Source of the DNA: an uncultured bacterium
Lineage (GTDB): Bacteria > UBP14 > UBA6098 > B30-G16
Direction: 5' to 3'
Assembly (NCBI GenBank): GCA_964562425.1
Contig: CAZLTJ010000007.1
Location: 1-46,535 of the forward strand
DNA length: 46,535 nt
Both the position numbers and the translations under genes were made by a program. Positions 13,392 to 38,523 of this stretch are shown piece after piece. Each line of letters starts with the position of its first letter. Within the stretch, counting starts at the first letter, position 1. The notes below the pieces were generated by a model that saw only the letters and a list, made by a program, of their open reading frames with translations, did no database searches and was not told where the DNA came from.

Positions 13392-13892
13392 TTATTTTAA
13401 TTTCTTCCATGCATTTAAAACCCGTTTTCTTATTTCCTCTGTAAGTATCTTTTGAATCTTTTTAACGTTCGGTTTAATCATCGGATGCGCCCTTATGCCT
13501 TTAACAGAAACCGCAAAGACATCTTTACCAACTTTATTTCCTTTTATTGGTTTCCATCTTAAAATAAAAGGCTTACCGGTAATTGGACTTATTTTTTTAC
13601 CTCTTATCTCTCCCTTTGCCTTATTAGGCCCGAATAATCCCGTACCTGTTTCAAGAAACAATGCACGTTTTAATGAATTAAATATTTCATAAGAAAACAT
13701 GGCTATCTTTCTTGTTTTCCATTCGCGTCGTGTTCTGCCCGTTCCTATCTTTGTTGAACGTATGATTAAGCCTTTCCCTTTTGCAGACGCTGCTTTAGTT
13801 GCCTGGTCAACAACAGTAGGAAATTTCTTAACGAAAAGATTTATTTCCGCTAAGTCTCTTTTATCAATCGTTACGTTTAATCCTAATGACAT
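13392..13892 (-). CDS. HK97 gp10-like head-tail joining / neck protein
   Basis: 166-aa basic ORF following the gp6-like connector. Size, position and the N-terminal pattern (KRDLAEINLFVKKFPTVVDQATKAASAKG) resemble the HK97 gp10 family. Confidence 0.5.
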   Translation of the reverse strand: MSLGLNVTIDKRDLAEINLFVKKFPTVVDQATKAASAKGKGLIIRSTKIGTGRTRREWKTRKIAMFSYEIFNSLKRALFLETGTGLFGPNKAKGEIRGKKISPITGKPFILRWKPIKGNKVGKDVFAVSVKGIRAHPMIKPNVKKIQKILTEEIRKRVLNAWKKLK

Positions 13893-13900
13893 AATAATCC

Positions 13901-14488
13901 TTACCAGCTATACCAACGATGGACGTATCTGTCCAATATTGTTTTAATGTCCTTTGGTACGGTATTAATAAACACAACGGCCTCGACACCTTCATTATCA
14001 ACAAAGGTACGCTTCATTAATCCTGCGCCGATACCGACCATTATATAAAATGCCTTTACAACATCTTGCGCTCCGGTCAAATCAACGCCGCCAACATACG
14101 TCACTACAATGTCATTTCTTACCCTTGACCAATGACCTTTTGAAGTTTGCCCCCGCGTAATGTCACTCAAGTCTGTTATCTTTTCAACAAGACCGGTTCC
14201 CTTATCCACATAAAAGTCATCATCTTCAATTAATGTAAGTCCACCTTCAACGATAGATGTAATAGACGCAATAGGTCTATTGTGTAAATAGAATCTATCG
14301 GTAAGTTTTTCAATCAACGGTTTCTCTTCCCTTGACTGTGACAGAAAATCATGTTTGCAATACTTCTGTATTTCATCGGCAACCAATGGTAAGTGAACGG
14401 CTATAACGCCGTCCTTGTCCGTGCCGGTTATACCATGATATGCTTTTACGTCTGCTGTAGTGATACTGTCTAGAGTGCCAATTGACAT
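13901..14488 (-). CDS. head-tail connector (gp6-like adaptor)
   Basis: 195 aa. The N-terminal ITTADVKAYHGITGTDKDGVI...ADEIQKYC pattern is typical of gp6-like DNA-packaging/connector proteins. Lies downstream of the capsid module. Confidence 0.55.
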   Translation of the reverse strand: MSIGTLDSITTADVKAYHGITGTDKDGVIAVHLPLVADEIQKYCKHDFLSQSREEKPLIEKLTDRFYLHNRPIASITSIVEGGLTLIEDDDFYVDKGTGLVEKITDLSDITRGQTSKGHWSRVRNDIVVTYVGGVDLTGAQDVVKAFYIMVGIGAGLMKRTFVDNEGVEAVVFINTVPKDIKTILDRYVHRWYSW

Positions 14489-14490
14489 CT

Positions 14491-14700
14491 TTATCTTCCT
14501 TTGTTATCTTTAACAGTTACCCATTCGGATATAATTTCTGATATTCTATCGGCAATCGGTTTAGATTCTACTATCATCCAATCAGGAATCATACCATTAA
14601 GTTCATTTAATAACGCAACCATTTCTATAAAATCTTCGATGCACTTTTCTTTCTTAAGGGTAATTATCATTTTAGCGTTTGCCATTATGCGTATTCCCAT
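14491..14700 (-). CDS. hypothetical protein
   Basis: 69-aa ORF overlapping the upstream glycosyltransferase-like gene by 16 nt. Confidence 0.35.
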   Translation of the reverse strand: MGIRIMANAKMIITLKKEKCIEDFIEMVALLNELNGMIPDWMIVESKPIADRISEIISEWVTVKDNKGR

Positions 14701-15488
14701 TGACCTTGATAGTGATTCATTAATATTTCGGATGACTCTTTAGACATAAAAACAACGTCATCTTTTTCCGCAATGATATCTTTATTAGTTACCGGATCAT
14801 TTCCAGTGAACTTTTTTATAATGCCAGTTGCCTTGAACCTTAACCCGATAGGTGTAATTTCATTAGAGATAAATGTATTGACAGGTATAGGGATATTATT
14901 CTCATTGCGTGTACGCATGTATTCCCCATCAAGTCCTAATCTTCTCGTGCCTCTTAATTCAGGAGTATGGATAATTTTAGCACTCTCGCATAATGGTTTA
15001 TCATGGATGGGGATATTTAATATCTTCCCCTGGCCGTCTTTTATGACATTATGTTTCTTATTATAATGAATGCCGGGGACGTTCCTGAATATCCTATTAT
15101 TCTGTGATGGCAATTCAACACCGCCTTGATGCATTATGTTTTTCATCTTATAGACATCTTCTTTAAGACTGCTCTTGTCTATTTGACCATCAAGATATTC
15201 ATCCGTATCTATAATGAAATAGTAATCGTTTTCTGATTTGGAAGTGAAATACATATTTCTCTTTGTCGGCTGATCCTTCCATGCTTCTTTACATTCGATA
15301 ATTTCATCAGAATATGCTTTAGCAATGTCCAGACAACCATCTGTGGAATATGGTTTGTTATGAGAAAACTCCTTATATGCACCATCAACACATACAATCT
15401 TATCAACAGTATCCCTGATTGAAATCAATAACCTTTCAAATAAATCAGGGGTATCGTTAAAGAAGATTGTACAGGCTATCAGGTTCAT
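14685..15488 (-). CDS. GT-A type glycosyltransferase-like protein (paralog of 36077-36766)
   Basis: 267 aa. Motifs VCVDGAYKEF, YSTDGCLDIAK and the DxD-like FIIDTDEY align with IAVDGAFKEF, YSTDGCIDVV and FSIDADEI in the island gene. Located directly after the major capsid gene. Confidence 0.6.
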   Translation of the reverse strand: MNLIACTIFFNDTPDLFERLLISIRDTVDKIVCVDGAYKEFSHNKPYSTDGCLDIAKAYSDEIIECKEAWKDQPTKRNMYFTSKSENDYYFIIDTDEYLDGQIDKSSLKEDVYKMKNIMHQGGVELPSQNNRIFRNVPGIHYNKKHNVIKDGQGKILNIPIHDKPLCESAKIIHTPELRGTRRLGLDGEYMRTRNENNIPIPVNTFISNEITPIGLRFKATGIIKKFTGNDPVTNKDIIAEKDDVVFMSKESSEILMNHYQGQWEYA

Positions 15489-15506
15489 ACTGTCCTTTCT
15501 TAGTTA

Positions 15507-15543
15507 GTAAAATGCAGGGATGCGGATTAAACACCCCTGCATT
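15507..15543 (-). terminator. putative intrinsic terminator/attenuator after the major capsid gene
   Basis: 9-bp perfect stem (plus strand aatgcaggg 15511-15519 / ccctgcatt 15535-15543) with a 15-nt loop. On the coding strand the stem runs into CATTTTAC. Lies in the 78-nt capsid-GT intergenic gap. Confidence 0.4.
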
Positions 15544-15566
15544 TGTTTCAGCCTTACAGGAGGGCA

Positions 15567-16829
15567 TTAAGTGATATCAATATCGATACCGTAATTAACA
15601 ATCCGCTCAGTGGCAATCGCAGCGCGAGGCTTGAAATCCTGACGGGTAGTTGCAACCATCTGATTAAGACCGGACACAATGTTTCTGTCAGTTTCAAGTT
15701 TCATCTGCCGTTTCATACCCCTGGTAAATAAATCCCTGCGACAAACAAGAAGCGCACCGTTATTAGTCACAGAGCCGTCGTATACACCGGAAGTATTTAA
15801 ATCTTCCCGCATAAACTCCGTAATGACATAAGGTGATGCACCGAGTTTGCCAATCTGACCGGGAAGAATGTTAAGGGATTCAGGGCCAGTGTTGACATTC
15901 TCTGTAAAGACCCTGTTATTATTGGCATCAACCAAGTCTTTGGTTTTGCCCTGCACTTTAACACCGGATATAAAAACCAGATTTCTGAAAGCAGCGGCAT
16001 ATTTACCCATATCCGTAACAAGAGACGTAATCTTGTTTGACGTAAAAGTAGACAGTGACCTGGTATAAGAATTTGCAATTGCAAGCCTTCTTAAACCATC
16101 CCATGCTTTCCTGTGGTCATTGGCAAGCGTAACATCACTGTCCTGATGAACAACGGAAGTATCAGAATTAACAATAGCATCGTCAATTGCCCGTGCCATT
16201 ACATTACCGATATCTTCTCGTACTACTGCCATAGTAGCAACTGCCGCATCTTCTGTCAGCTCATCGGACACCTGCACATAATCACCAATGGCAACAGGCA
16301 AGAGATTTACCTTTCCATCCGAGATTGATGATTCAGTAATTGCAGAACCTTCAGATTTAAGATATGCCGTTGACCGTCCTGTCTTAATAGGAAGGTCAAG
16401 ACTCTCAACACCTTGCGGAACAACAGTAATACCAAACAACTTCGCAATCATAAGATCAATCTGTATGAGATCGATAAGCTGCCGGGACATTCCATCAGGA
16501 ACCCAGTCGGCCGTATTGGTCGTGGTCATTGCTTTACCGAGTTCTGATGTTTCCATAAACTCTTCAAAGCGTTTATAAAGCTTCAGGTCTTTTACGGGAA
16601 CCCTTAACATCTTTGAAACGATGTGAAGTTCATCGCACATGTTCTGAAACTTTACAATCTTGATTTCTTCATGGTCTTTGGTATTGGGATCAATCTCTCG
16701 CTTGTGAAGTTCAATCGGGTTAAGGCCGCGTTCGTTATTGATAGCGAACTGACCGTCCCTTATGACATTACTCTTTTTAAATGCTCTTATTGTTTTACCA
16801 ATAAGTTTTTGTGCTTCTAACTTATCCAT
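15567..16829 (-). CDS. major capsid protein (HK97 fold)
   Basis: 420 aa with a coiled N-terminal delta-like region followed by a typical HK97-family core (TADWVPDGMSRQLIDLI..., LPIKTGRSTAYLKSEG, VSDELTEDAAVA). Preceded by protease and scaffold genes. Confidence 0.9.
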   Translation of the reverse strand: MDKLEAQKLIGKTIRAFKKSNVIRDGQFAINNERGLNPIELHKREIDPNTKDHEEIKIVKFQNMCDELHIVSKMLRVPVKDLKLYKRFEEFMETSELGKAMTTTNTADWVPDGMSRQLIDLIQIDLMIAKLFGITVVPQGVESLDLPIKTGRSTAYLKSEGSAITESSISDGKVNLLPVAIGDYVQVSDELTEDAAVATMAVVREDIGNVMARAIDDAIVNSDTSVVHQDSDVTLANDHRKAWDGLRRLAIANSYTRSLSTFTSNKITSLVTDMGKYAAAFRNLVFISGVKVQGKTKDLVDANNNRVFTENVNTGPESLNILPGQIGKLGASPYVITEFMREDLNTSGVYDGSVTNNGALLVCRRDLFTRGMKRQMKLETDRNIVSGLNQMVATTRQDFKPRAAIATERIVNYGIDIDIT

Positions 16830-16860
16830 GTTATTTTCCTTTCGTGTTTACTGTTTAAAA

Positions 16861-17412
16861 TTATTTCGCTGCAACAATGTCTTTGAGTGCCTTTGCAAGT
16901 ACATCAGCGGGTGATGTCGCCGGACGCTCTTCACCAAGCAATTCATATTTGATTTCATCGCTTACCATTTTGGCAAAGTCGTCATCGGATATTTCTTTAT
17001 CAGCGTCATCGGTTTTCTTGACAGGCTTTTCATCTTCTGTTTTGTCCTCTTTCTTTGCAGGCCCGGCCATTGCAACCAGCTTGTCAATAGCGGTCTTCAT
17101 GGAATTAAGAATAGCAAGGGCATCTTTATTGAATCGCGCACCGGCTTTGTTTACGTCCAGTTCGCTTTCAAGCGCCTTTTCAACCTTACCCCTGACATCT
17201 TCATCAAGGCCTTCAAGGACTTCGTTTCTCTCATCTTCCGTTTCACAGGCTTTTAAGAGTTTAATTGCAAGTTTCTCATTCATGGTATTTCCTTTCATGC
17301 GTTTAAACAAAAACATTTTTTTATTGTTTGCACCGTCATCAACTAGGGCAACGGCACTAACTGCCATATTGACCAGATTGTTCAGGCGGTCAAACTTTCT
17401 TTTCTTTGCCAT
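16861..17412 (-). CDS. putative scaffolding protein
   Basis: 183-aa highly charged helical protein between the protease and capsid genes. N-terminal VALVDDGANNKKMFLFKR motif. Confidence 0.5.
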   Translation of the reverse strand: MAKKRKFDRLNNLVNMAVSAVALVDDGANNKKMFLFKRMKGNTMNEKLAIKLLKACETEDERNEVLEGLDEDVRGKVEKALESELDVNKAGARFNKDALAILNSMKTAIDKLVAMAGPAKKEDKTEDEKPVKKTDDADKEISDDDFAKMVSDEIKYELLGEERPATSPADVLAKALKDIVAAK

Positions 17413-19304: not shown

Positions 19305-19489
19305 TTTTCAGCCTTATAAAATTTAGCTTCCTTATCTTCGACTACTTTTAATTCTTCTTTTTTAGTATCTTTATTACGAATAATCGATATCGGTGGATAA
19401 CCACCAAGAGTTTCTATTTCGTGTTTATCCCTATCAAAGAGACTGTAATATTCTTGCCCTGATATTTCTTTCCAGTTTGTTTTTTCCAT
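19286..19489 (-). CDS. hypothetical protein
   Basis: 67-aa ORF. Its start codon overlaps the portal stop by 1 nt. Confidence 0.4.
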   Translation of the reverse strand: MEKTNWKEISGQEYYSLFDRDKHEIETLGGYPPISIIRNKDTKKEELKVVEDKEAKFYKAEKWKRLI

Positions 19490-21711
19490 TACTTACCTAA
19501 ACTCTCTACAAAAGTGCAGCGGCAGTTAACTAAATCGGCAACATTACCTGTTGGGTCTCCCGGAAATCTTAAACCACCATGAGCAGTTGGAAATAGTTCA
19601 CCAAACTTTTTTATTTGCCCATCAAGCGATGAATGATCTGATCTGTCATCAGGTGGCCCTGCTGAAATCCATTCAATATGAGTAAAACCACTCTTCTGCA
19701 TTGTTTCGATTTTTGTTATACCGGAAACTTTTAATGTTTCAGTTCTTGCAATCGTTCTTGACCAGACTGCCGTCCCTTTATTTTCAACATCGAATGCGCG
19801 TTGTATGTTTGCAGTCATTTCACTTATTGATGCGTCTTTTCTGACCAAGTCTTCAAGACGTTCTTGAACTCTTGTTTGTGTTGTAGTTGTAATACTTCGT
19901 GCTGAATCTTGCGCTAATTTTTCAAGCCTATCGTTTGTTGCGCTAGTTAACTCTTTTAATACTTGGTCACTAATAACTTCATTATTTATTCTTTTATATT
20001 CATCCTGGATAAACTTTTTTGTTATTGCGGTTTCAGAATTAATCATCAATCTCATAATATTTTTTGTTTCTTTATCTAATGCAGTAATTGCATCTTTAAC
20101 TATATCTTGCTTTATAAAACTAAAAGTCTTTTTAAATTTATTCAATGAACTAATAACGACATCTTCTTGAATTTTCATTATCTTCTTTGCCATTATCTCA
20201 AGTTTTTTTAATCCAAACTGAAAGAATGAATTAAACATTGCTATTACTTTTTGACGTTTTTCTAATAGTTCCTTTTTGCTTAATGTTCTAGGCCCCGGCT
20301 TGTCCTTTTTCTTAGGCTTATCCGCTGGTTTGTTTTTATCTTCAGGATTAACGAAACGTGCTTCAAACATCATACCCTGTTGTTGCCCTCCGCCTTTGGG
20401 CACGATTAGTTTATCGGCGGCCTCATCTTCAGCAGGTTTGATGTTCCAGATAACTTTCCTGACTTCATTCTGTGACCATTGCCCGGATTCAATTAGTGTC
20501 TTTCCTGTTTCTGATTTTAATTTTAAATCTTCCTGAAGCACTGCAATATCAGAAAAATCAAACTTCATCTTCATGTCAAACGGCGTATAGAACTCTTTGT
20601 TTAACGCATCTTCAAGCTGCCGCATCAATGGCATCATTGTTTCTTCCCAAAAGAATATCTTCTGCTCTTTGGCATTGTTGTAGTGTGTATCATTCGGGAG
20701 TCCGACCATAATCGGCGGCACATTAAACGCTGTAAGTATTTCCTCCATATTGGATTTTTTATGTTCCGGCAATAACGTCTTGTCCGGCTGGATACCGATT
20801 TGTTTTATTTCAGTACCCTGGTCAAGTACCCTGATTTCATGTGAATTTTGTACACCGCCCCACATAGTATTTAGTTCTTGCTTTAATCTTTTCGCCTCTT
20901 CATTATCAAGATCACCCGGTACTTGTGCGTACAAGTCTACGTTGCCGCCCTGCTTAAAGAAATTCTTTGCATAGGTGCGCGTATAGACATCAAGGATTAT
21001 AGACGCACCTGCCGGTTGTGTTGCCCCCATGCCGTACAGTTCTGAACGCGGATGAAACAATGCGACCCTAAACACTTTTTCTTTTTCAAGTTTTTGCTGT
21101 ACTCCATTTGGATTATAAGCATATCCTGTTATCAATTCCTGTGGTGAGGTCAGGACAGTTGTATAATCCGGCCTTAAAACATAAACCTGTTCAGGCATAT
21201 CAGGACTAGACTTTTCCCAGTAGTTGTTGCCTGTCAGTTGCAGATAAGCTATTGTTGCATAAATGAGATTAAATTTACTCATGTACGGATTAGGACTATT
21301 AAGTAATTCAAACGATTCACCATCGGTTATCAGCTTACCTTCTTCATCATCGTTGTCGGGCTTCTTTGTCAAATCAAATATGCGTATAGGAAGTTTGGCG
21401 CCATTCCTAGCAATAGCGTCAACCGCTGCATACGTCCAGATATTCTGCTCATAAACTTTTAAAAACGTTGTTTGATCTTGTCCCTCTTTGATTTCAGCTT
21501 CCCGATGTACTCGCATGTCATCATTGATAACAACAGAGCTGTCTCGTTTTGATAATGCTCTCTGGACTAAGACGGGGACTTGTTTGTTAATGATGCTTGT
21601 TACCCTCTGCTGTATTTCCCTCTCCTGGTATAGATTAGTCCTTACAACCTGTACGGCTGTAGGTTTAGGTTCAAATTTGGTTAAGACTTTATCAAGAAAC
21701 TGTTTTATCAT
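19489..21711 (-). CDS. portal protein fused to a MuF/SPP1 gp7-like head morphogenesis domain
   Basis: 740 aa. The N-terminal ~450 aa is portal-like (AAVDAIARNGAKLPIRIF, LLNSPNPYMS, LTGNNYWEK). The C-terminal ~130 aa carries the MuF signature (RTIARTETLKVSG...HSSLDGQ...VNCRCTF). Confidence 0.8.
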   Translation of the reverse strand: MIKQFLDKVLTKFEPKPTAVQVVRTNLYQEREIQQRVTSIINKQVPVLVQRALSKRDSSVVINDDMRVHREAEIKEGQDQTTFLKVYEQNIWTYAAVDAIARNGAKLPIRIFDLTKKPDNDDEEGKLITDGESFELLNSPNPYMSKFNLIYATIAYLQLTGNNYWEKSSPDMPEQVYVLRPDYTTVLTSPQELITGYAYNPNGVQQKLEKEKVFRVALFHPRSELYGMGATQPAGASIILDVYTRTYAKNFFKQGGNVDLYAQVPGDLDNEEAKRLKQELNTMWGGVQNSHEIRVLDQGTEIKQIGIQPDKTLLPEHKKSNMEEILTAFNVPPIMVGLPNDTHYNNAKEQKIFFWEETMMPLMRQLEDALNKEFYTPFDMKMKFDFSDIAVLQEDLKLKSETGKTLIESGQWSQNEVRKVIWNIKPAEDEAADKLIVPKGGGQQQGMMFEARFVNPEDKNKPADKPKKKDKPGPRTLSKKELLEKRQKVIAMFNSFFQFGLKKLEIMAKKIMKIQEDVVISSLNKFKKTFSFIKQDIVKDAITALDKETKNIMRLMINSETAITKKFIQDEYKRINNEVISDQVLKELTSATNDRLEKLAQDSARSITTTTQTRVQERLEDLVRKDASISEMTANIQRAFDVENKGTAVWSRTIARTETLKVSGITKIETMQKSGFTHIEWISAGPPDDRSDHSSLDGQIKKFGELFPTAHGGLRFPGDPTGNVADLVNCRCTFVESLGK

Positions 21712-21726
21712 TTTGATATTTTCCTT

Positions 21727-23295
21727 TTACCAGACACCCGGCCCACGTTTGGTTATTCTTTTCAATGCACCCTGTGATGCATCCGGGCCGTCTTTCTTTG
21801 CCTGCGGATAATTCTGGAATTGTTCAACCAATAATCTGTAATTCTCCGGTGCGCTCTTCCAGTCTTTGCGAAACATATACACACCGGTTGTTATAAACGG
21901 CTCCTGCCATTGTATACGGCTGTCCTTATCATGCATGTTCGCCTTGCCCTTAGTAGGTACAGGCGCCTTTCCATCGTTAAGAGATTTCCTTATTGCACCG
22001 TCTTTCATTAACGCCTGAAAGCCATTGTCCTCCATGTAAACATGATAAATAACTCCGTCATTGACCTCTGATATATCCCTGTAAATTCTGTTATGATCCT
22101 GGATTAACTTTGTCGGTGGACGCTTATCAATGGACGCATAGAGACACATGAACTTTCCCTTGAACTCGCCGTCTTTGATTCTACCGATAACGACAATGGC
22201 AGAGTAGTCTGATGTTTTTGTTTCCTTTAACGCCGGGTCTGTCCATTGAACAATCTTATCATACGTCAAGTGCTGATGATCTTCAAATGTAAACTCTTTA
22301 AAGATTTGCGTCTTAGGGTCAAGGGGTCTAAGTTCATACTCTGCCATGTACGTTGCAAAGTCAGTGCCATCTTGTCCCTCTTTAACAATGCGCAATTCTT
22401 TCAATTTCTTTTCAGGAAGTATGTCCGGGAAATTAAGTGCATCATTGTCCGGGTCGCCGTCTTTGTGTGCCGATGTTTCCATGATGTTGAAACCCTGTAG
22501 TTTTTCTTTTAACAGGTGCGGATTGATAACTTCTTTGATGTGGTTATAAATGTCATACACATGCTTCCGGGTGCCAGGCATTATGTATATGCCATTGTCC
22601 TTTTTAAGTAAATCCCATACGTCTTGAAAGAAAGATAATGTTTGGTCTCTGCCTGCTTGCGATTCCTTATCTTTCTTCCCTGCAATATCATCAGCAATGA
22701 TAATGTCAGGATGGATTGAAGTTAAAGCGGTTCCTATCCCGGCAACAGAGATAGATTTCTCTTTCATGTTCTTTGTCTTGCGGTTGATAGTAATAGACTC
22801 TTTACTCCAATCATCGGTTGAAACATAATTTCCAAACAGATCACGCAGCTTCTCATTCTTTTCAAAGTGCGATTTAATTTCCTTGAGCATGTTCTTTGCA
22901 ATTTCATGCGTATCATTGACTATGAGAATTGATAATTCAGGATTGTTTAAAAGAATGGCAATGGATAAAGTAATGGTGAAAAACGTTGTCTTGTAAACTT
23001 CCCTTGGCTGTAAGATTAAATTTTTACTTGGCGTACCACCGGTCAAGTCAATATGCTTATTAGTCCAATCATTCCAGCGTTTATGAGTATTATTAAGCTC
23101 CCGATAACCAAGTATATTTTTTCCCAGGTAGAAAAGATTTGATTTAGCGAGTACGCGGATTTTGCTTTTTTCGTTTTCTTCTTCTTCAAGTTGTTTATCT
23201 GTTAAGGATTTTTCAAGACTGTCCCTTAAGCCGGATATAAGCCGGTCTCTGCAGGCGTTTACAATGTCACCTTTACGCAGCTTGCTTTTCACCAT
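21727..23295 (-). CDS. terL: terminase large subunit
   Basis: 522 aa. Walker A-like QPREVYKTTF, Walker B-like DIIIADDIAG, and a C-terminal RNaseH-like nuclease region (SDYSAIVVIGR ... MEDNGFQ). Immediately upstream of the portal gene. Confidence 0.85.
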   Translation of the reverse strand: MVKSKLRKGDIVNACRDRLISGLRDSLEKSLTDKQLEEEENEKSKIRVLAKSNLFYLGKNILGYRELNNTHKRWNDWTNKHIDLTGGTPSKNLILQPREVYKTTFFTITLSIAILLNNPELSILIVNDTHEIAKNMLKEIKSHFEKNEKLRDLFGNYVSTDDWSKESITINRKTKNMKEKSISVAGIGTALTSIHPDIIIADDIAGKKDKESQAGRDQTLSFFQDVWDLLKKDNGIYIMPGTRKHVYDIYNHIKEVINPHLLKEKLQGFNIMETSAHKDGDPDNDALNFPDILPEKKLKELRIVKEGQDGTDFATYMAEYELRPLDPKTQIFKEFTFEDHQHLTYDKIVQWTDPALKETKTSDYSAIVVIGRIKDGEFKGKFMCLYASIDKRPPTKLIQDHNRIYRDISEVNDGVIYHVYMEDNGFQALMKDGAIRKSLNDGKAPVPTKGKANMHDKDSRIQWQEPFITTGVYMFRKDWKSAPENYRLLVEQFQNYPQAKKDGPDASQGALKRITKRGPGVW

Positions 23296-26916: not shown

Positions 26917-27753
26917 TCATCCTTTCCTTAATTCATCAAGTAGTTTAATTGTCGCTTCGGCTTCATGCAATTTAAACTTGCCCTCATTAATAATAGCTTC
27001 GTAATTTTGAATATGCAGATCGTTATCCGATAGGTCGAGCAATTGGCCGTTGATAAGAAAATCCCTCCTGATCTTTCCTTCGCTGCTTTTAATTCCGTGT
27101 TTATCGACCGTTGAACTGGCAATTGATAGAGACCAAGCCGCCCTCGCATAATCAAAAGACGATACGCCCTCTATATGACCATGGCCTAAAGCCGCGCCCG
27201 TACTATCAATAAACGACCCTTTGTGATTACCAAACATATACAGAAGCAAATCGAATAAATGTATCCCGATATTAGAAAGCAAGCCGCCCGATTTGACGAC
27301 ATCGCCCTTCCAGCTTTTAGAATACCAATCTCCACGCGGAGTCCTATATACGATTTCAACAATATTTTTTGCATCGCGCTTGAAGTTTACTATCTCGGGA
27401 TGTAGACGTAATTGACTTATGAAACGAATGTGACTTTTAGCTAAATATAACCTGTTAAAATCGTACATGCTTAAGACAAGCGGCTTTTCGCAGATGACAT
27501 ATTTTGATCGTGAAAGTAAACAATGCTGAAAATGTAAATGGTTCGGCGTACAGATGACCGTATAATCGCAATCGGCCGTCCACCGGAAAAACTCTGTCTC
27601 GCAGGTAGTGAATTTAATTCCCCTATCAAAACTATCAAGCCAGCCAACATTTGTCGAGATATCACAAGCATATTTGACCGTATGTCCCAGGTCGTAAATG
27701 ACTTTAACATGACGCGGTGCAATGTAACCTAATCCTATAATTGCAAATTTCAT
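26917..27753 (-). CDS. Gfo/Idh/MocA-family NAD(P)-dependent sugar oxidoreductase
   Basis: 278 aa. N-terminal Rossmann motif MKFAIIGLGYIAPRH and the family EKP motif (VICEKPL). ATGA overlap with the upstream kinase-like gene. Confidence 0.7.
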   Translation of the reverse strand: MKFAIIGLGYIAPRHVKVIYDLGHTVKYACDISTNVGWLDSFDRGIKFTTCETEFFRWTADCDYTVICTPNHLHFQHCLLSRSKYVICEKPLVLSMYDFNRLYLAKSHIRFISQLRLHPEIVNFKRDAKNIVEIVYRTPRGDWYSKSWKGDVVKSGGLLSNIGIHLFDLLLYMFGNHKGSFIDSTGAALGHGHIEGVSSFDYARAAWSLSIASSTVDKHGIKSSEGKIRRDFLINGQLLDLSDNDLHIQNYEAIINEGKFKLHEAEATIKLLDELRKG

Positions 27754-28142
27754 AATTTAGGCTCCGGGGATTGTAAATCATGTCCGAAATAATAAACCCC
27801 GTCTTCATATTCATAAGGATATTCCGGGTGAACTTTCCCGCCACTAAGATAAATAAATACGCAGCCTGTTATTTCCTGTATTGCTTTTCTGGTTTTCTTA
27901 TATGGCGCTATGACCGAGACAATCACATCAACGCCTTGAGAGTCAATCAGCTTTGCGATTTTGGCAATTCTCAAGTTATGGTTGTGTCTATTGTCTTCAG
28001 AAAATCCCGTTGGATAAATATCCCGAATTGCATCGCCATCCAAAAGAACAGCACTCTTGCCGAATTTTCTTAGCTGACCTTGCATCTGAAGACCAAGGGA
28101 AGTTTTGCCACTTTCACTTTGCCCTGTAATCCATATTATCAC
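27750..28142 (-). CDS. adenylylsulfate (APS) kinase-like P-loop kinase, short form
   Basis: 130 aa. Aligns by eye with E. coli CysC over about 95 residues: P-loop WITGQSESGKTS, LLDGDAIR, GFSEDNRHNHNLR and VIAPYKKTR. Lacks the CysC C-terminal lid (KGLYKKAR). GTG start with GGAGG 7 nt upstream. Confidence 0.6.
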   Translation of the reverse strand: MIIWITGQSESGKTSLGLQMQGQLRKFGKSAVLLDGDAIRDIYPTGFSEDNRHNHNLRIAKIAKLIDSQGVDVIVSVIAPYKKTRKAIQEITGCVFIYLSGGKVHPEYPYEYEDGVYYFGHDLQSPEPKL

Positions 28143-32548: not shown

Positions 32549-33235
32549 TTAGTATAAATTAAAGTCATTTAATATCGTATTCATTGTCCTTGAGTATTGT
32601 CCTGAATGCCACTTTAATATTTTCTCAGTGGGGTTGCGCCCGCTTTGCATCCACCATATAGGGTGGATATTACATTGTACGGATTGCCCTTTTTTAAACC
32701 ACTCGCTTTCAAATGGATTCCCTTCACGGAAAAATCCCCTTGAATCAGAGATATATTTAATGTCCCCAAACCATTGCTTTTTATAAGTATGTTCTATTGT
32801 TGGTGCATAGCTTGAAAAAGATTTTATTGCAGGTTTATGAATTGATATTATCTTTGGGAATATGCAAAATGTTTTAAAAAATATACTGCATTCAGTATAA
32901 CATTCAACTTTAACGTCTTCACCATAGATACCGGGATTAAAATGTAAGCTGATATCATGATGTTTTAATATATTATTAATCAACGTCCTGTTTTCTTCTT
33001 CCAGTATGCTATAAAAAGGTAGTGTCATTATAAAGAAATACGTTGCATCTATCCCGTAAGAATTTTCAAGCAGTGACATTGCGTAAGCATATTGTATGTC
33101 AAAGTCAATATCATGTCTTAATATTACTTGTTTATCTTTACCATGCTCAAAAATCTTGAACGTCTTAAAGACGTAATCATGTTTAATAAAAGTATCTAAG
33201 AAATTATGGTATGTGCCGAACTCATTTGTATTCAT
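32549..33235 (-). CDS. polysaccharide deacetylase-like protein
   Basis: 228 aa. The VILRHDIDFD ... GIDATYFF pattern resembles the divergent polysaccharide deacetylase/carbohydrate esterase families found in surface-glycan clusters. Overlaps the sulfotransferase gene by 14 nt. Confidence 0.4.
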   Translation of the reverse strand: MNTNEFGTYHNFLDTFIKHDYVFKTFKIFEHGKDKQVILRHDIDFDIQYAYAMSLLENSYGIDATYFFIMTLPFYSILEEENRTLINNILKHHDISLHFNPGIYGEDVKVECYTECSIFFKTFCIFPKIISIHKPAIKSFSSYAPTIEHTYKKQWFGDIKYISDSRGFFREGNPFESEWFKKGQSVQCNIHPIWWMQSGRNPTEKILKWHSGQYSRTMNTILNDFNLY

Positions 33236-34160
33236 TTAATGCCTTTCCATTATAATTTAATTTGATTATGATATCTTCCAGCATAACTTTAAGTAAAGAT
33301 ATTTCACTGGCTGTCAAATCCTTTCTCCATCTTCCAATATTGTGTTTGTTTAGATTAATATCCAACATCTTTTTATTAAATGGCAGACCGATAAAATTAC
33401 AAATATCCGTAATAGTTTCTTTAGGATTATGTATTAATTTTTCAAATCTGATTTCATAAAAAGAATTTACAGGCAATCCCTTTCTTATTTCAAACCAGCG
33501 ATTAATAATATCAGCGTACATTTTAACCGATAATTCAATTTCAGACGGACACCATCTTTGTTTTACGAATGAAGTTACAACGTCTAGCGGATTGCGGTAT
33601 ATGTGAATTATTTTAGCGTCCGGCATTATTTCTAATAGCTCTTTAGCAAAAAGAATATTCCATGTGTTATCTTCAACATACATTTTTTTATTCTGCTTCT
33701 TAAGAATACTGCTGATAACATCATTGATAAACTTTCTTATGATAGGTTTTAATGTTTCTTTAGATTTAGGTGACGAATAACACATTTGTATTGCTTGATT
33801 TTCTGCACCAATCCACGATCCATAAAAATAAAAAGTATGCAATTCGTTAATTAATTTAACAACAAACTCACTGAATTCTGGAATATGTTTATCAAGTTCC
33901 CAATCCTTATAACCAATGAGTTGTGATTTCTTGTTAGAAAGTTTTTCTAAAAGAGTTTCCAGTCTTTTCAATCGCCTGTCAATTACATAAGGTGTCCACG
34001 TTTCAAAACTATTATAGAAATCAACTAACCCATCCGGATCGATTATAAACCGATATTCAAAAGGCAGCGTTGCGATATCAGTGTGCAAGCCTAAAATATC
34101 TTTAAGAATGTTAGTACCGCACCTGCCAGTACCGCCTATGAATACAATTTTAGTTTCCAT
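33222..34160 (-). CDS. PAPS-dependent sulfotransferase
   Basis: 312 aa. 5'-phosphosulfate-binding loop FIGGTGRCGTN at the N-terminus and 3'-phosphate-binding motif IIHIYRNPLDVVTS mid-protein. Confidence 0.7.
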   Translation of the reverse strand: METKIVFIGGTGRCGTNILKDILGLHTDIATLPFEYRFIIDPDGLVDFYNSFETWTPYVIDRRLKRLETLLEKLSNKKSQLIGYKDWELDKHIPEFSEFVVKLINELHTFYFYGSWIGAENQAIQMCYSSPKSKETLKPIIRKFINDVISSILKKQNKKMYVEDNTWNILFAKELLEIMPDAKIIHIYRNPLDVVTSFVKQRWCPSEIELSVKMYADIINRWFEIRKGLPVNSFYEIRFEKLIHNPKETITDICNFIGLPFNKKMLDINLNKHNIGRWRKDLTASEISLLKVMLEDIIIKLNYNGKALNEYK

Positions 34161-34176
34161 TTGTCCTCCATAGTTT

Positions 34177-34764
34177 TTATAAATAAGCCTTAAGGAATTC
34201 AGCGATTTTGTTTCCTAGAACATTATTGCCGAAATCGTTTTGATGAACACCGTCTGTTGATATACATTTTTTTCTGTTGTTTTCAATAATAACTTTATGC
34301 AGATCGTTGACGGTTATATTTTCATCCTCGATCACCTCTAGGGAAGCTTTATTATATTTGTCAACATCTATATTATTGCGAATATAAATTTTTGTTTCTT
34401 GGCTTTCTTTTCTAAGGGGTGTTATCGTTGCCCATATTAATGTAATATTTTCTGATTTGCAACGCTGAATTACTTCACGAATATTTTTTTGATATTGCGG
34501 TACGCTGCAGCAATAATTTCCACGCCGTTCTAAATCCTTCCATATTTTTAAATCATGCAGGCCAGCATTCCAGTGCATTATATCCGGCTTGATTAATGTA
34601 ACCCATTTGTTCCAGTTATTCAAAATATATACCGACCGACCGCCATTATCGCTATATTCTTTGTCTTTTATAATTGAAAAGTCAGCTTTTCCCTTTAGCC
34701 GATCCATAACAACATGACGGTATCTTTTACATATACTATCACCTGCAAGCAATATTTTTTTCAT
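34177..34764 (-). CDS. SGNH/GDSL-family hydrolase (esterase)
   Basis: 195 aa. Block I LLAGDSI with the nucleophile Ser, and block V TDGVHQN (DxxH). Confidence 0.7.
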   Translation of the reverse strand: MKKILLAGDSICKRYRHVVMDRLKGKADFSIIKDKEYSDNGGRSVYILNNWNKWVTLIKPDIMHWNAGLHDLKIWKDLERRGNYCCSVPQYQKNIREVIQRCKSENITLIWATITPLRKESQETKIYIRNNIDVDKYNKASLEVIEDENITVNDLHKVIIENNRKKCISTDGVHQNDFGNNVLGNKIAEFLKAYL

Positions 34765-36087
34765 TTAAAACCTCACATATTCAATAAGCGCTACATTTTT
34801 TCCAAAGAATTCTTTAAATCCCTGCCTGAATTGATTAAGTCCGGTATTTAATATTTCTTCAGTTATCATGTATGTATGAAATTCATTTGGCTTAATATTC
34901 AATCCGGTAAGGATTAAAATATTCGTCTTTGTTACTCGACCTATCTGTAATAGCGCCCTGTCCAAATGACAAACGCTATCTAATACAGCAAAGGCAATTG
35001 TAGTATCAAACCATAAATCAGGATAGCTTAGTTTTTCTATTTTCATCCTTACTACATTATTATTTACAGGATATGCGTCAATGCCGGTGTATTCTGTATC
35101 GGGCGATAAGTATCCTTTCACAATCATTGATCCGCATCCAATATCTAAAACTTTCTTTCCGATGTTTACCTTTTTAACGTGTGAATCATACTTGTTTACC
35201 GGCCCCTTGATTAAGTTTACACGTTCTTTCCTGCGCTCCTTTCTACGCTGCATTAGATTTTCCATTTTTCTATACCACACCTGCCTTTCATTATTACGGA
35301 TCGTGTGGAGCGCTTCCATTTCTTCATCGCTGATTTGTTCTTTTTGATTTTGCTCTTGTGCCTTCAAAATAATTCCCTTGTTATTAGTTTCTATTCCAGT
35401 TAATTTCCAATTAATACTTTGCGCTAAAATTGTCAGGGGTTCGGGGTTTGCAATAGTTTCTTTCCAAATTGTACGATCTTTCCCTGCTCTCGGTTGATTA
35501 ATTAAATATCCCGTTTCGTGATTAACAGCTATAATTGGTATGTTCTTTTCCTGTGCAAAAATAGAAAACTCCACATCATCTAAATTTCTATTCTTAAATT
35601 CACTTAATTTAATTTCTATCGTATCTGAATGATATGACATTACCCCTGTACCGGCAACATGAATCTCTCTATCGTTAGGCCAATCGCGTAAACATCTACA
35701 TATAATTTCCTGGTCAACAATCCAATGGTGTAATGGTTGTTTTAAAATACGACCGTGTAAAGTTATAATTGCCCTGCGTTCATATTGTTCTATTTTTGCA
35801 ATTGATTTTTCTATATAATCTTCAGGATAGATAATGTCATCATCCAAATAAAATAAATAGCCTTTGATTTTATCAGAGATGTAAAACCTGCTTGCCGATC
35901 CATAGTCTTTACCAATAATACAAATTATTTTATCATTATCTAAAAGGAAGCCAGGCACACTACTAAAATCATTGAGGTAAATATAAAACGTATCGATCTG
36001 GTCAATTATACTTGATACTGCCTTTTGTAAATATTCGACTCTGTTTGGCATTGTTGGTATGATTGCGGTTTTCATTTTAGAAATCAT
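34765..36087 (-). CDS. bifunctional GT-A glycosyltransferase / class I SAM methyltransferase
   Basis: 440 aa. The N-terminal GT2-like half has TAIIPTMPNR and the DxD motif FYLDDDIIYP. A basic linker follows, then a C-terminal methyltransferase with motif I KVLDIGCGS. Confidence 0.65.
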   Translation of the reverse strand: MISKMKTAIIPTMPNRVEYLQKAVSSIIDQIDTFYIYLNDFSSVPGFLLDNDKIICIIGKDYGSASRFYISDKIKGYLFYLDDDIIYPEDYIEKSIAKIEQYERRAIITLHGRILKQPLHHWIVDQEIICRCLRDWPNDREIHVAGTGVMSYHSDTIEIKLSEFKNRNLDDVEFSIFAQEKNIPIIAVNHETGYLINQPRAGKDRTIWKETIANPEPLTILAQSINWKLTGIETNNKGIILKAQEQNQKEQISDEEMEALHTIRNNERQVWYRKMENLMQRRKERRKERVNLIKGPVNKYDSHVKKVNIGKKVLDIGCGSMIVKGYLSPDTEYTGIDAYPVNNNVVRMKIEKLSYPDLWFDTTIAFAVLDSVCHLDRALLQIGRVTKTNILILTGLNIKPNEFHTYMITEEILNTGLNQFRQGFKEFFGKNVALIEYVRF

Positions 36088-36766
36088 TTAATTCCCTCCG
36101 GTATTCCCATTCTTTACGGTTAGCTTTATAGCTTTCCTTTTGATGTTGTCTTTTCTTTGGCCTTAAATCCTGCCTGTTATGAATTAACATTGTATCGCCA
36201 TTTTTATCTACAAGTGACTTTCTTGTTTTATTCATCCTGCCCTTTGCACTTGTAACTAATCCGCTTTCTAAGTCCCCTTCCTTATGCTGTCTTGTCCTGT
36301 AAATCGTGCAATGACGGTATCGGTATTCAATATCGTCATACATTTTATAACCCCGGACAGTATTGAGCATCAAAGTGGTGCCGTCTTCGTGAAACCGTTT
36401 TTGTTTTATACGGTATACATCTTCTGTTAATTCTATTCCATCCCAACTGAATGGCTGCATTATTTCATCCGCATCAATGGAAAAACAATAGGAACCTATC
36501 GGCGTATGTTTAAAATATTGGTTTCTTTTTACCGCCTGGTTAAACCAAAAATCTTTAGGTGCGCTAACATGAATATCAGCATATTTTCTAACAACATCAA
36601 TACATCCATCGGTTGAATAATATTTTTCATTTGGCAATAATGGAAACTCTTTAAAAGCGCCGTCTACTGCAATTATTTTAAAACCATTTGCCTTTAATGC
36701 TTTAAAGCAACTCTCAAGCAAGCCAGGCGAATCATTATAATAGATGACCCCTGCATATAATTTCAT
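36077..36766 (-). CDS. GT-A type glycosyltransferase-like protein (paralog of 14685-15488)
   Basis: The track ORF starts at GTG 36793. I prefer ATG 36766 (MKLYAGVIYYND), which aligns with MNLIACTIFFND of the paralog. Motifs IAVDGAFKEF, YSTDGCIDVV and FSIDADEI. Confidence 0.6.
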   Translation of the reverse strand: MKLYAGVIYYNDSPGLLESCFKALKANGFKIIAVDGAFKEFPLLPNEKYYSTDGCIDVVRKYADIHVSAPKDFWFNQAVKRNQYFKHTPIGSYCFSIDADEIMQPFSWDGIELTEDVYRIKQKRFHEDGTTLMLNTVRGYKMYDDIEYRYRHCTIYRTRQHKEGDLESGLVTSAKGRMNKTRKSLVDKNGDTMLIHNRQDLRPKKRQHQKESYKANRKEWEYRRELNDF

Positions 36767-36780
36767 TTTAAAATCTCTGT

Positions 36781-36897
36781 TTATTTCTTCCACATTCTAC
36801 TTCTGTTTGCTTTTGAACCCATAAAAAATACTACATATAATAATAGCATAATTATATAAAGTAGAAACACATCAAATAGAATGTGAATCCACCCCAT
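36781..36897 (-). CDS. 38-aa hydrophobic peptide
   Basis: Hand translation MGWIHILFDVFLLYIIMLLLYVVFFMGSKANRSRMWKK gives one TM helix plus a basic tail. GGAAG lies 2 nt before the ATG (short SD spacing). Lies between two GT genes. Could be chance in AT-rich DNA. Confidence 0.3.
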   Translation of the reverse strand: MGWIHILFDVFLLYIIMLLLYVVFFMGSKANRSRMWKK

Positions 36898-36925
36898 TGC
36901 TTCCGGATCAATCGAATCTTTAATT

Positions 36926-37741
36926 TCATATAATCTTTTTATCAAATACATCTTTACTTAATCCTAATAATCTATCTGCGATATATTCAGGGACAATATC
37001 GCCGATGACTTTATCGGTTTTATAAAAAGGCGGTTGTGGGTTTTGATAGTGCCGGACTCTCTTAAGGGAAATTTTATTGAATCCATCTGTATTAATACCA
37101 GTTTCCCAATTCCCTCCATTCCATATAGTATTCATATCAGATCTAAATATATCATATTTAACCGATCTTGCATTCCTATAAAGCCAACCATCAATCGTAA
37201 AGCCCTTATCTCTAAACGGAAGATTTTTAATAAGCTCCATCCTTATAGAGATGTTTACACCTTTCGACGAAAAGGACTTTGATTTTTTAGATGGGATATG
37301 ACTTCTTAATATAATCTGTCCCGTTTTGCAATTATAAAAATATATGTTTTCATAATGTATCCAATCGTATCCGCCCTTTATATGATTATAAGCAGTTGAA
37401 ATCCTATCATTCTGTGAATAGTTATCAGATGCTTGCAATAACAACATCTCTGATTTTTTATCAGCTGACTGGACAATGAATTTCCATTTACTTTCAAGGG
37501 TCACATAATCTTCCAAGTCAATAAATTTTATTTCCCTGCACCCTGCTTTATAAAGCCTGTCTCTGTAAGAATCAAAGAATTGATTTCCGCAATATCCATC
37601 TTCACTATCAGGACATAATTCTTCACAGATAATTAATTCCCATTTAAAATTAATGTTTACTTGATTACATAGGCTTTCCATGGCAAGCCATACGATTGCA
37701 CTTGATTTAAACACTGGCAAACCTACGGATAGTTCAATCAT
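36926..37741 (-). CDS. family 2-like glycosyltransferase
   Basis: 271 aa. Typical GT2 N-terminus LSVGLPVFKSSAIVWLAMESLCNQ. ATGA-type overlap with the upstream acyltransferase gene. Confidence 0.6.
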   Translation of the reverse strand: MIELSVGLPVFKSSAIVWLAMESLCNQVNINFKWELIICEELCPDSEDGYCGNQFFDSYRDRLYKAGCREIKFIDLEDYVTLESKWKFIVQSADKKSEMLLLQASDNYSQNDRISTAYNHIKGGYDWIHYENIYFYNCKTGQIILRSHIPSKKSKSFSSKGVNISIRMELIKNLPFRDKGFTIDGWLYRNARSVKYDIFRSDMNTIWNGGNWETGINTDGFNKISLKRVRHYQNPQPPFYKTDKVIGDIVPEYIADRLLGLSKDVFDKKII

Positions 37742-38523
37742 TTAGTTTCTTGCCTTTTTGCAGGGACACCCATTACTGTAATATTGTCAGGTATGTCTTT
37801 AGTGACCACACTCCCCATGCCCACCATGCAATTACTCCCTACTTTAATTCTGTTTCTGATTATAGCACCCGGAGCTATCCGCGTACCCTCTCCTATTTCG
37901 CAATGACCGAGCAGGATTGCGCTGGACATAATCAAAGAGTTGTCGCCTATTTTAACGTCATGCGATATGGAGCAAAGATTATCTATCTTCACACCATTTC
38001 CAATTACAGTATTGCCAAAAGTCCCCCGGTCAATGCAGACACAAGCACCAATGTCAACGTTATTTCCAATTATCACACCGCCGATATTAGGAAATCGAAT
38101 AGGTTTATTATTTTCATCCTTAACGAATCCATAATTATCTTTTCCTATAACACTATTTTCGCCTACATAAACGTCTCTGCCTGTTTCACAACAGGAATAA
38201 ACAGTAGCATTGTCAAACTTACTGTTATTTATCCCATCTCTTATAGGAAATTTCTGCATTTGATAATGATAAAACTGTTTAATAACCTTTGCCATTGCAA
38301 GGCGCGGATTATCAACAGGAATAAATGATTTACATTCACCATACACTTCCTCTAATTCCGGTGCTAATACAATCATATTTTGATTTAATAATTTAACAAC
38401 ATCATTATACATAAACGTCAACGTATTCTCTTTGTAATTATCAAACTCCGACACTCCTTCAATTTCAACGTCCTCTCCAATGATAGGCGCGTTTAAAAAT
38501 TCTGCTATTACAGATAGTTTCAT
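37738..38523 (-). CDS. LpxD-type UDP-aminosugar N-acyltransferase (left-handed beta-helix)
   Basis: 261 aa. LpxD-like N-terminal domain (MKLSVIAEFLNAPIIGEDVEIEGVSEFDNYKENTLTFM). The hexapeptide core aligns closely with E. coli LpxD and keeps the catalytic His context: IGGVIIGNNVDIGACVCIDRGTFGNTVIGNGVKIDNLCSISHDVKIGDN. Confidence 0.75.
   Translation of the reverse strand: MKLSVIAEFLNAPIIGEDVEIEGVSEFDNYKENTLTFMYNDVVKLLNQNMIVLAPELEEVYGECKSFIPVDNPRLAMAKVIKQFYHYQMQKFPIRDGINNSKFDNATVYSCCETGRDVYVGENSVIGKDNYGFVKDENNKPIRFPNIGGVIIGNNVDIGACVCIDRGTFGNTVIGNGVKIDNLCSISHDVKIGDNSLIMSSAILLGHCEIGEGTRIAPGAIIRNRIKVGSNCMVGMGSVVTKDIPDNITVMGVPAKRQETK

Follow-up and report, generated by a model that had tools for sequence, protein, structure and literature searches.

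Gene order around the capsid gene

The stretch of DNA analysed here, 46,535 nucleotides (nt) of contig CAZLTJ010000007.1 (assembly GCA_964562425.1) and hereafter called the window, is a phage sequence in which the minus strand is the coding strand for all genes. We examined an open reading frame (ORF) of its head module, 14685-15488 on the minus strand, which encodes a protein of 267 amino acids (aa) predicted to be a glycosyltransferase (GT) and is called GTcap below. It sits between the gene for an HK97-type major capsid protein (MCP) and that for a head-tail adaptor. The local gene order is portal-MuF fusion, XkdF-type protease, a 183-aa acidic protein that is likely the scaffold, MCP, GTcap, a 69-aa ORF, head-tail adaptor and Neck1 (Table 1). 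This location, behind a hairpin that follows the capsid gene and ahead of the connector genes, had been given in a preliminary description of the window, and the coordinates, the PHROG and Pfam matches of the neighbours and the 14-bp hairpin stem all agreed with it.

Three features place GTcap in the late head operon. A Shine-Dalgarno-like motif precedes its start codon, its stop codon overlaps the next start codon (TAATG), which would imply translational coupling, and no promoter-like site was found on the minus strand in the 78-nt gap between MCP and GTcap (15489-15566). This gap holds the hairpin. The 82-nt stretch 15489-15570 folds at -25.2 kcal/mol (z -3.3), and none of 200 shuffled sequences folded as well. 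A simple terminator scan did not call the hairpin because its U tract is short; it is probably a leaky terminator or an mRNA-stabilising element. Because of its position upstream of GTcap, the latter is probably expressed below the level of the capsid protein. An Rfam scan of 14400-17000 returned nothing meaningful. A compositional anomaly, as a sign of recent acquisition of GTcap, was rejected, the guanine-cytosine (GC) content of the gene being 35% and within the range of neighbouring genes.

GTcap as a glycosyltransferase of a new family

The AlphaFold2 model of GTcap (predicted local distance difference test, pLDDT, 77.7) has a single, Rossmann-like GT-A fold. All of the top 49 PDB matches listed by Foldseek were GT-A enzymes, as were most of the viral matches, and viral GT2 models of BFVD matched the GTcap model as well. 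SunS and ThuS, which S-glycosylate peptides, gave the best PDB matches (E 7e-7 to 3e-6); further ones included TarS, RmlT, WrtF, KfiA, polypeptide GalNAc-transferases and glycogenin. When a profile of 16 full-length GTcap relatives (alignment A3) was compared with the PDB, the GT domain of GmaR was matched over 142 residues (E 5e-10). GmaR was the only solved structure with a significant sequence match to this profile, SunS and ThuS coming next (E ~0.07).

Residues D35-G36, K76-R77, D94-x-D96-E97 (the DxD motif), H146 and R179 were invariant in the alignments of both subfamilies described below (A2 and A3), in which mean column identity is ~41-45%. Both D35, the nucleotide-binding Asp, and D94-T-D96-E97 align with the corresponding GmaR residues. 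No transmembrane segment was detected in GTcap (maximum Kyte-Doolittle 19-residue mean 0.94). The fold, the invariant DxD and the GmaR match bear out the earlier assignment of the protein as a glycosyltransferase, and by conservation and model it is very likely an active one. We are highly confident that it is soluble and metal-dependent. The characterised enzymes closest to it have polypeptide acceptors. As a rule, enzymes of the GT2 type are inverting.

Curated libraries hardly recognise GTcap. No GT2 model scored above its gathering score (the best Pfam model, PF13704, reached 17.5 bits against a cut-off of 27.5), NCBIfam and PHROGs gave no match, and PF00535 was matched only weakly, by four of the 16 subfamily members. 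From this combination of a GT-A fold and missing library matches, GTcap is assigned by sequence to a new family within the GT2-like fold, outside the named Pfam families.

The window encodes a second member of this family, GTisl (229 aa), in a distant island of glycan-related genes. By BLASTP, GTcap and GTisl are 37% identical over 155 aa (E 5e-27) and have in common the motifs VDGA(Y/F)KEF, YSTDGC(L/I)D and (I/S)ID(T/A)DE; the homology and the three motifs had been recognised before, and they were all recovered here. The similarity is confined to the N-terminal catalytic part (approximately the first 155 residues), and the C-termini are unrelated. The further claim that GTcap is a second, duplicated copy of the island gene could not be maintained. 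HMMER was run exhaustively against 1.84 billion cluster representatives (clusters at 50% identity) and detected 1420 family clusters at E <= 1e-3, of which 404 also reached E <= 1e-10. Members of the GTcap subfamily are proteins of 250-290 aa that align with GTcap end to end at 30-43% identity, while those of the GTisl subfamily are ~225-aa proteins with a different C-terminus and 43-71% identity. The GTisl-subfamily profile also matches GmaR (E 0.002). Among 156 family members, GTisl ranked only 70th in similarity to GTcap, and GTcap 47th in similarity to GTisl. A recent duplication was rejected, since other phages hold numerous sequences closer to either gene and the C-terminal parts do not match; the two are old paralogs from two widely distributed subfamilies with different typical contexts.

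Searches for known-phage relatives returned little. A tblastn search of GTcap against 50,697 phage records found none, a word-indexed protein search returned one fragment and one ortholog (on a 928-nt contig) only, and a further profile search for known-phage relatives added little.

A shortened form of the gene was observed on a 98%-identical, 21-kb JGI contig, where the product (P0001) is only 148 aa long. Its first 16 aa correspond to another reading frame of window positions ~15340-15385 and the remainder to GTcap residues 134-267. Either a misassembly or a ~250-nt internal deletion that takes out the DxD region is suggested by this. No truncation of this type came up when metagenome contigs were scanned for the exact pattern; Logan contigs from two sediment runs break inside the stretch 15165-15341, but no deletion joint was seen in them.

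Family genes recur beside capsid genes of other phages

Scans seeded with the GT profiles yielded 22 viral loci, 8 reference-genome loci and 54 metagenome loci, the neighbours of which were annotated with the window's own proteins and with PHROGs. In many of them, a family GT lay at most one gene downstream of the MCP gene (L002, L003, L015, L016, L017, L018, L019 and L021, and further L119, L121, L133, L153, L158, L160, L161 and L171). Elsewhere it was located between portal and MCP (L020, L163) or between terminase (TerL) and portal (L013, L014), or adjoined connector genes (L004, L007-L011, L124, L149). One or two extra GT2 genes directly followed the family GT in several loci (L002, L003, L017). 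The adjacent MCPs fall in at least four PHROG families (phrog_10, 212, 264 and 2263). A head or neck location was observed in ~13 of ~17 distinct viral lineages, corresponding to a binomial tail of ~1e-6 to 1e-4 if head and neck modules make up 20-30% of a genome, a rough figure with lineages counted by hand. Whether related phages carry a GT at the same head-module position was a check proposed in the preliminary description; some of them do, and family GTs recur beside capsid genes in many unrelated phages.

A scan seeded with the MCP instead detected a family GT in 13 of 80 MCP-homolog loci; in 68 of the 80, the sequence downstream of the MCP gene was 900 nt or longer. In all but one of these 13, the GT starts at a position from 91 nt ahead of the MCP stop to 473 nt past it. 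The GT-positive MCPs were polyphyletic and interspersed with GT-negative ones. Given this scatter on the one hand and the constant position on the other, the sequence comparisons identify the family GT as an accessory gene, yet one that repeatedly returns to, or is retained at, the post-capsid slot.

A locus probably of this kind is carried by a cultured actinobacterium. In an apparent prophage of Fodinicola feengrottensis HKI 0501 (L027, NZ_WOTO01000035.1), the portal gene is followed by a 402-aa ORF, likely a capsid protein candidate, and then directly by a family GT. As for GTisl-type homologs, one (P0007, L114) has SSB and an AAA_24 ATPase as its neighbours in an early region, and another lies (P0009) two genes upstream of a GT2-like gene.

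We also observed proteins of 555-591 aa in which the family GT domain is C-terminal, behind an unassigned N-terminal region of ~300 aa (L024:6122-9585, with two in tandem; L136:4062-5837; L138:4125-5792; L030:5942-7708; L172:1585-3351). Those from the genome collection stem from metagenome-assembled genomes of Actinomycetota.

A small C-terminal module occurs fused, split and free

Behind the catalytic domain and a low-confidence linker, residues ~216-267 of GTcap form a module of ~50 residues (consensus ..KF.G..Y.G.D...I.VS.EKA.QLL.DFP..W), which the preliminary description does not mention. A separate model of residues 206-267 (pLDDT 88, predicted TM-score 0.71) shows four strands, a helix and a final strand. 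A Foldseek search with the module gave nothing better than E 0.56, and GINS B-domain-like matches were not significant.

Within the same capsid lineage, proteins of 56-110 aa that carry this module on its own are encoded downstream of the MCP; they were detected first by the A3 profile and then by a dedicated hidden Markov model (A6; E 1e-5 to 1e-23). Among 66 loci with at least 1500 nt after the MCP gene, the module was present in 30 and a family GT in 12, and only three contained both. In nine of the 30 module loci, the module starts 38-74 nt after the MCP stop, and in 22 within 700 nt. The nearest MCP relatives of the window (L034, L036, L037) carry a free module and no GT. Fusion to the GT was observed in the window, in P0010/L001 and in the metagenome locus L124, which has the exact order of the window (GT with module, adaptor, Neck1). 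In L152, the module is encoded by a separate gene directly after the GT, and in L038 a tandem pair of modules forms the N-terminus of a second GT-like protein, located after the family GT downstream of the MCP.

As it occurs in stand-alone, split and fused forms, the module is an autonomous unit. The same pattern appears to tie the enzyme functionally to a small head-module protein, and its simplest reading is that the module probably docks GTcap on a component of the head. Neither the GT family nor the module was described in the literature searchable in full text.

One stand-alone module (L075:6700-7014) is fused to a HeH/LEM domain (PF12949, E 2e-7), a domain that is usually DNA-binding; other stand-alone modules end in Lys/Glu-rich tails. 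A further stand-alone homolog is encoded at L041:5275-5607.

The glycan-tailoring island

GTisl belongs to an island that contains a 228-aa protein without assignment, a sulfotransferase, an SGNH/GDSL hydrolase, a fusion of a GT2-like domain with a methyltransferase, GTisl itself, a 271-aa protein without assignment and an LpxD-like hexapeptide acyltransferase (Table 1). Outside the island, a gene for adenosine 5'-phosphosulfate (APS) kinase adjoins a gene for a GFO/IDH/MocA sugar oxidoreductase; both might be supporting genes for the island. The product of APS kinase, 3'-phosphoadenosine 5'-phosphosulfate (PAPS), is the sulfotransferase donor. As the kinase and a sulfotransferase are both encoded, the phage could, judging from its genes, make PAPS and use it.

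Next to the island, a 186-aa protein (38705-39265) showed a weak, proteasome/Ntn-hydrolase-like match (PF00227, E 0.0095) below the cut-off.

Comparison with known glycosylation systems

The closest sequence relative of known structure, GmaR of Listeria monocytogenes (PDB 22ao/22ap), resembles GTcap in that a GT2-like domain, soluble and ~180 residues long, precedes a separate domain. In GmaR, this first domain transfers N-acetylglucosamine to Listeria flagellin (PMC9638930). This acceptor is a protein subunit that self-assembles into a polymer, and the second domain is thought to recognise the substrate (PMC9638930). The differences are also clear. In GmaR, the GT domain is followed by TPR, linker and anti-repressor domains, whereas GTcap has the ~50-residue beta-alpha module, and no TPR-type substrate-recognition domain of the GmaR/SunS type is present at the GTcap C-terminus in the model. 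The GTcap family has a specific insertion, GAYKEF...YSTDG, where GmaR has D-TGSTD. Finally, GmaR is a cellular regulator, while GTcap is a gene of a phage head operon. SunS and ThuS (PDB 7msp, 7msn, 7msk) are likewise GT2-like and glycosylate a polypeptide directly (query-normalised TM-score ~0.45-0.48), although at 16-18% identity their match to GTcap is significant at the structural level only. Their peptide-binding domains are of the TPR type, and the residue they modify is a Cys (or Ser) in the precursor of a small secreted bacteriocin.

In mycobacteriophages, phage-encoded GTs add sugars to capsid and tail-tube proteins (PMC12363180, PMC11600133, PMC12619734), as established for Che8, Corndog and Myrna. 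Cluster O phages have three tandem GT genes downstream of an O-methyltransferase gene, and Corndog gp38 was reported to be essential for capsid glycosylation. In Corndog, the gene order of cluster O and what has been published on gp38 mark genes 35-38 as the glycosylation cluster. It is flanked by gp34, similar to the window portal, and by the protease gp39, and is therefore a precedent for placement in the head module. The GT genes of Che8 are at the right genome end. A methyltransferase accompanies the mycobacteriophage GTs too: both Che8 gp108 and the island protein encoded at 34765-36087 are GT-methyltransferase fusions with the same domain order, without detectable similarity between the two (phmmer E ~1). 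None of the Che8 and Corndog enzymes has the C-terminal module. Their hosts are Actinomycetota, whereas the phage described here has 37% GC and comes from marine sediment.

Enzymes acting on the cell envelope (TarS, TarP, GtrB) have the GT-A fold and DxD chemistry in common with GTcap (Foldseek E 3e-5 to 1e-4 for TarS), and some of them are phage-encoded. In contrast to GTcap, which is soluble, small and located in a late head operon, they use envelope polymers or lipid carriers as acceptors, are membrane-associated or trimeric with dedicated domains, and belong to lysogenic-conversion loci.

A model for GTcap function

The explanation that we prefer, on evidence from sequence and structure models and at about even odds, is that GTcap is a late-expressed protein glycosyltransferase that is tethered to the head and glycosylates the capsid protein or another virion protein. 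Taken separately, a virion protein of some kind is slightly favoured as the acceptor, and the chance that it is the capsid protein itself falls somewhat short of even. The MCP is the best candidate because its gene is the most frequent neighbour of the family GT.

According to the model, transcription of the head operon late in infection would yield much capsid protein and, past the hairpin, less GTcap, the translation of which would be coupled to that of the downstream head gene. With a nucleotide sugar as donor and a divalent metal held by the DxD motif, the catalytic domain would place the first sugar on Ser or Thr residues of a virion protein, most likely the MCP. The C-terminal module would meanwhile tether GTcap to the head or to the protein being modified. 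Enzymes of the island might then lengthen and modify the glycan, namely GTisl and the GT2-methyltransferase fusion, the acyltransferase, and the sulfotransferase supplied with PAPS by the phage. The analysis establishes the fold, the motifs, the homology, the integration into the operon, the recurrent linkage to head modules and the distribution of the module; the activity of GTcap, the protein nature and identity of its acceptor, docking by the module and cooperation with the island are all inferred from sequence and models.

The preliminary description had suggested that capsid or tail proteins may be the glycan acceptor. As far as a virion acceptor is concerned, this idea has been strengthened by three kinds of indirect evidence, namely recurrent adjacency to capsid genes in many unrelated phages, nearest characterised relatives that are without exception protein or peptide GTs, and fusion to a capsid-side module. 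The priming step that the preliminary description assigned to GTcap would be part of the model. The case for the acceptor is still circumstantial, though it now draws on dozens of independent genomes instead of one.

Several observations weigh against the model. The family GT was found in only ~18% of the related capsid lineage, and the post-capsid slot is a common place for accessory genes. GTisl-type homologs occur in early or replication regions of other phages, so the family is not exclusively head-linked. GT-A enzymes that act on teichoic acids or polysaccharides (TarS, RmlT, KfiA) score similarly to the peptide enzymes in Foldseek, and for this reason the fold alone does not fix the class of acceptor. 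The module has no significant PDB profile, Pfam or PHROG match. No homology of the GTcap family to Che8 gp108-110 or to Corndog gp34-38 and gp41 was detected (hhalign gave a probability of 0.1-0.2%, and in a database of nine sequences hmmsearch and phmmer gave E 0.017-2), so that the parallel with mycobacteriophages drawn in the preliminary description does not extend to kinship of sequence. A glycan on virion proteins is a prediction from genes, and the phage is uncultured. Lastly, MCP residues 151-170 form a Ser/Thr-rich loop that is not specific to GT-carrying phages. As a candidate signal of the acceptor site, Ser/Thr content per column was compared between MCPs with and without a linked GT, and the top columns lay in this loop (151-168); the signal was rejected as a clade effect, since close GT-negative relatives share the Ser/Thr-rich loop.

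Other roles of GTcap were considered. The one with most in its favour, although we regard it as unlikely, is that of an accessory (moron-type) gene that modifies a host envelope glycan (teichoic acid, capsule or O-antigen) late in infection. Progeny or competing phages would thereby be kept from adsorbing to infected cells or debris, and the island would be a surface-polysaccharide modification kit. The Foldseek matches to the wall-teichoic-acid enzymes TarS and RmlT and to polysaccharide synthases would fit such a role, as would the neighbouring GTs in L002, L003 and L017 that match PHROGs named GtrB-like O-antigen conversion, and an island content (sulfotransferase, acyltransferase, SGNH hydrolase, oxidoreductase) resembling surface-polysaccharide loci. 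The place of GTcap after a hairpin downstream of the capsid gene is, moreover, a classic accessory slot, and only some relatives carry the GT there. However, GTcap has no transmembrane segment, the scanned window ORFs include no match to a flippase, GtrA or Wzx, and the gene is translationally coupled into the head operon without a promoter of its own. Nor would an envelope role account for best sequence relatives that are protein GTs, for a family recurring beside four unrelated capsid families and portal or connector genes, or for fusion or adjacency to a small protein specific to the head module. That small protein leads to another possibility, in which the acceptor is a head-associated protein other than the MCP (the module protein, a decoration protein, scaffold, portal or tail) and the module is a substrate-like or partner domain. 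It is a variant of the model proposed above, inseparable from it here, and taken alone it seems improbable. It would agree with the fused, adjacent or free-standing state of the module, often with a charged tail, with family GTs that adjoin portal or connector genes and not the capsid gene, and with the glycosylated tail tube that mycobacteriophages have besides the capsid (PMC12619734). Set against this are the capsid gene as the most frequent neighbour and the distribution at the post-capsid slot, where GT and free module are mostly mutually exclusive (both in 3 of 12 GT loci), which makes the free module unlikely as a general substrate.

A role in DNA modification appears very improbable. 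Here, GTcap would add sugars to hydroxymethylated bases around packaging and protect the genome from restriction. Phage enzymes of GT-A fold that glycosylate 5-hydroxymethylcytosine do exist (bioRxiv 10.1101/2023.12.21.572611), the GTisl-type homolog P0007 lies beside replication-type genes as described above, and the window encodes a DNA N6/N4 methylase. Among the scanned window ORFs (a few small ORFs excepted), however, there was no Pfam match to a C5-methyltransferase, a TET/JBP-type oxygenase or a thymidylate-synthase-like hydroxymethylase. The closest structures are peptide and protein GTs, whereas the published DNA GT-A enzymes match TarP and JGT instead, and the GTcap motif DTDE (K76R77 ... 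D94TD96E97) appears to differ from their R...DDD...EDY/F, as compared with the described signature. Head-module placement and module fusion would also be left unexplained. It is more improbable still that GTcap is a catalytically dead protein of GT fold with a structural or assembly role in the head (decoration or chaperone-like). Fusion to a small head-module protein would agree with it, and the 98%-identical contig appears to encode residues 134-267 only, without the DxD region (P0001). Yet all signature residues for binding of nucleotide sugar and metal are invariant at a mean column identity of ~41-45%, which is unexpected in a dead enzyme, and the hairpin implies sub-stoichiometric expression.

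Returning to the virion-glycosylating enzyme, a more specific version, which we consider improbable, can be put forward for its module. The latter might be a capsid-lattice-binding element, that is, a miniature decoration or cement-like protein native to this lineage of phages. GTcap would then be docked on assembling or finished heads, possibly carried by the virion, and would build a glycan coat in situ that is subsequently methylated, acylated and, with PAPS made by the phage, sulfated by the island enzymes. If so, a sulfated glycan shield would be known from a phage for the first time, and head-module GTs would represent a widespread, independently evolved route to virion glycosylation outside actinobacteriophages.

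Within the literature searched, experimental proof of phage-encoded virion glycosylation is limited to a few mycobacteriophages, in which it shields particles from antibodies. What is new here is the proposal, made from genes, that virion glycosylation may proceed via another family of enzymes, so far unannotated, in which targeting would be the task of a new module. If the family GT does act on virion proteins, capsid glycosylation would be far more widespread among environmental phages than recognised, as expected from ~1400 clusters and from recurrence in the head module next to at least four capsid families. The position of the gene would then be easy to use as a marker in genomes, and the module, occurring free, split and fused, would be a handle for studying how an enzyme is targeted to the capsid. 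A glycan coat could affect adsorption to particles or mucus, decay, grazing, immune recognition and phage engineering. The Fodinicola feengrottensis prophage, with its candidate order of capsid gene then GT, makes the idea testable and could serve as an experimental system.

Other features of the window

The phage has a GC content of 36.9% and no tRNAs, and its sequence is present in marine-sediment metagenome runs. Compared with proteins of known phages, its MCP and terminase reach no more than 25-29% identity. Coordinates are collected in Table 1. The small ORF that follows GTcap had no family match in the Pfam and PHROG scans.

Table 1. Positions of GTcap, its parts and other features in the window
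Feature	Positions	Strand	Evidence or remark
GTcap gene, 267-aa soluble glycosyltransferase (GT-A domain, linker, C-terminal module)	14685-15488	-	ORF, AlphaFold2, Foldseek, profile
Catalytic GT-A domain, residues 1 to ~198	14895-15488	-	invariant columns in A2/A3; alignment to GmaR GT domain
Low-confidence linker, ~residues 199-215	14844-14894	-	pLDDT <50 at residues 199-220; length and sequence variable across A3
C-terminal ~50-aa module, residues ~216-267	14688-14843	-	separate model and module HMM
Hairpin, 14-bp stem and 7-nt loop, then UUUUAC, between MCP stop and GT start	15510-15544	-	RNA fold
Shine-Dalgarno-like GAAAGGA, 4 nt 5' of GTcap start codon	15493-15499	-	read from sequence
Major capsid protein (MCP), HK97 fold	15567-16829	-	PF05065, E 1.6e-12; phrog_10
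Small ORF, 64-69 aa	14491-14700	-	start overlaps GTcap stop: TAATG at 14683-14687
Head-tail adaptor	13901-14488	-	phrog_442, E 9e-18
Neck1	13392-13892	-	downstream of head-tail adaptor
Portal fused to Mu F-like domain	19489-21711	-	
Prohead protease, XkdF-type, 576 aa	17416-19146	-	
Likely scaffold, acidic, 183 aa	16861-17412	-	
GTisl, island paralog, 229 aa, same catalytic domain, other C-terminus, other subfamily	36077-36766	-	BLASTP, profiles
Glycan-tailoring island	32549-38523	-	Pfam matches
Sulfotransferase	33222-34160	-	PF13469, E 5e-23
GT2-methyltransferase fusion, 440 aa	34765-36087	-	GT2-like N-terminus, class I methyltransferase C-terminus
APS kinase, outside island	27750-28142	-	PF01583, E 6e-22
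GFO/IDH/MocA sugar oxidoreductase, adjoins APS kinase	26917-27753	-	Pfam

The prohead protease is unusually long, its XkdF domain comprising only residues 454-561 behind a Cys-rich, zinc-ribbon-like N-terminus. For the large terminase (21727-23295), the best match in the phage collection was ANMV-1, which infects an uncultured archaeon (29% identity, covering 89% of the terminase). Features of bacterial appearance are the Shine-Dalgarno sites and the domains Phage_rep_org_N, DnaB and DUF551. Finally, a 45-nt unit is repeated 2.1 times (97% matches) at 46443-46535, running to the right contig end; read in the frame checked it does not code, and it might be a repeat of the terminus or one related to assembly.

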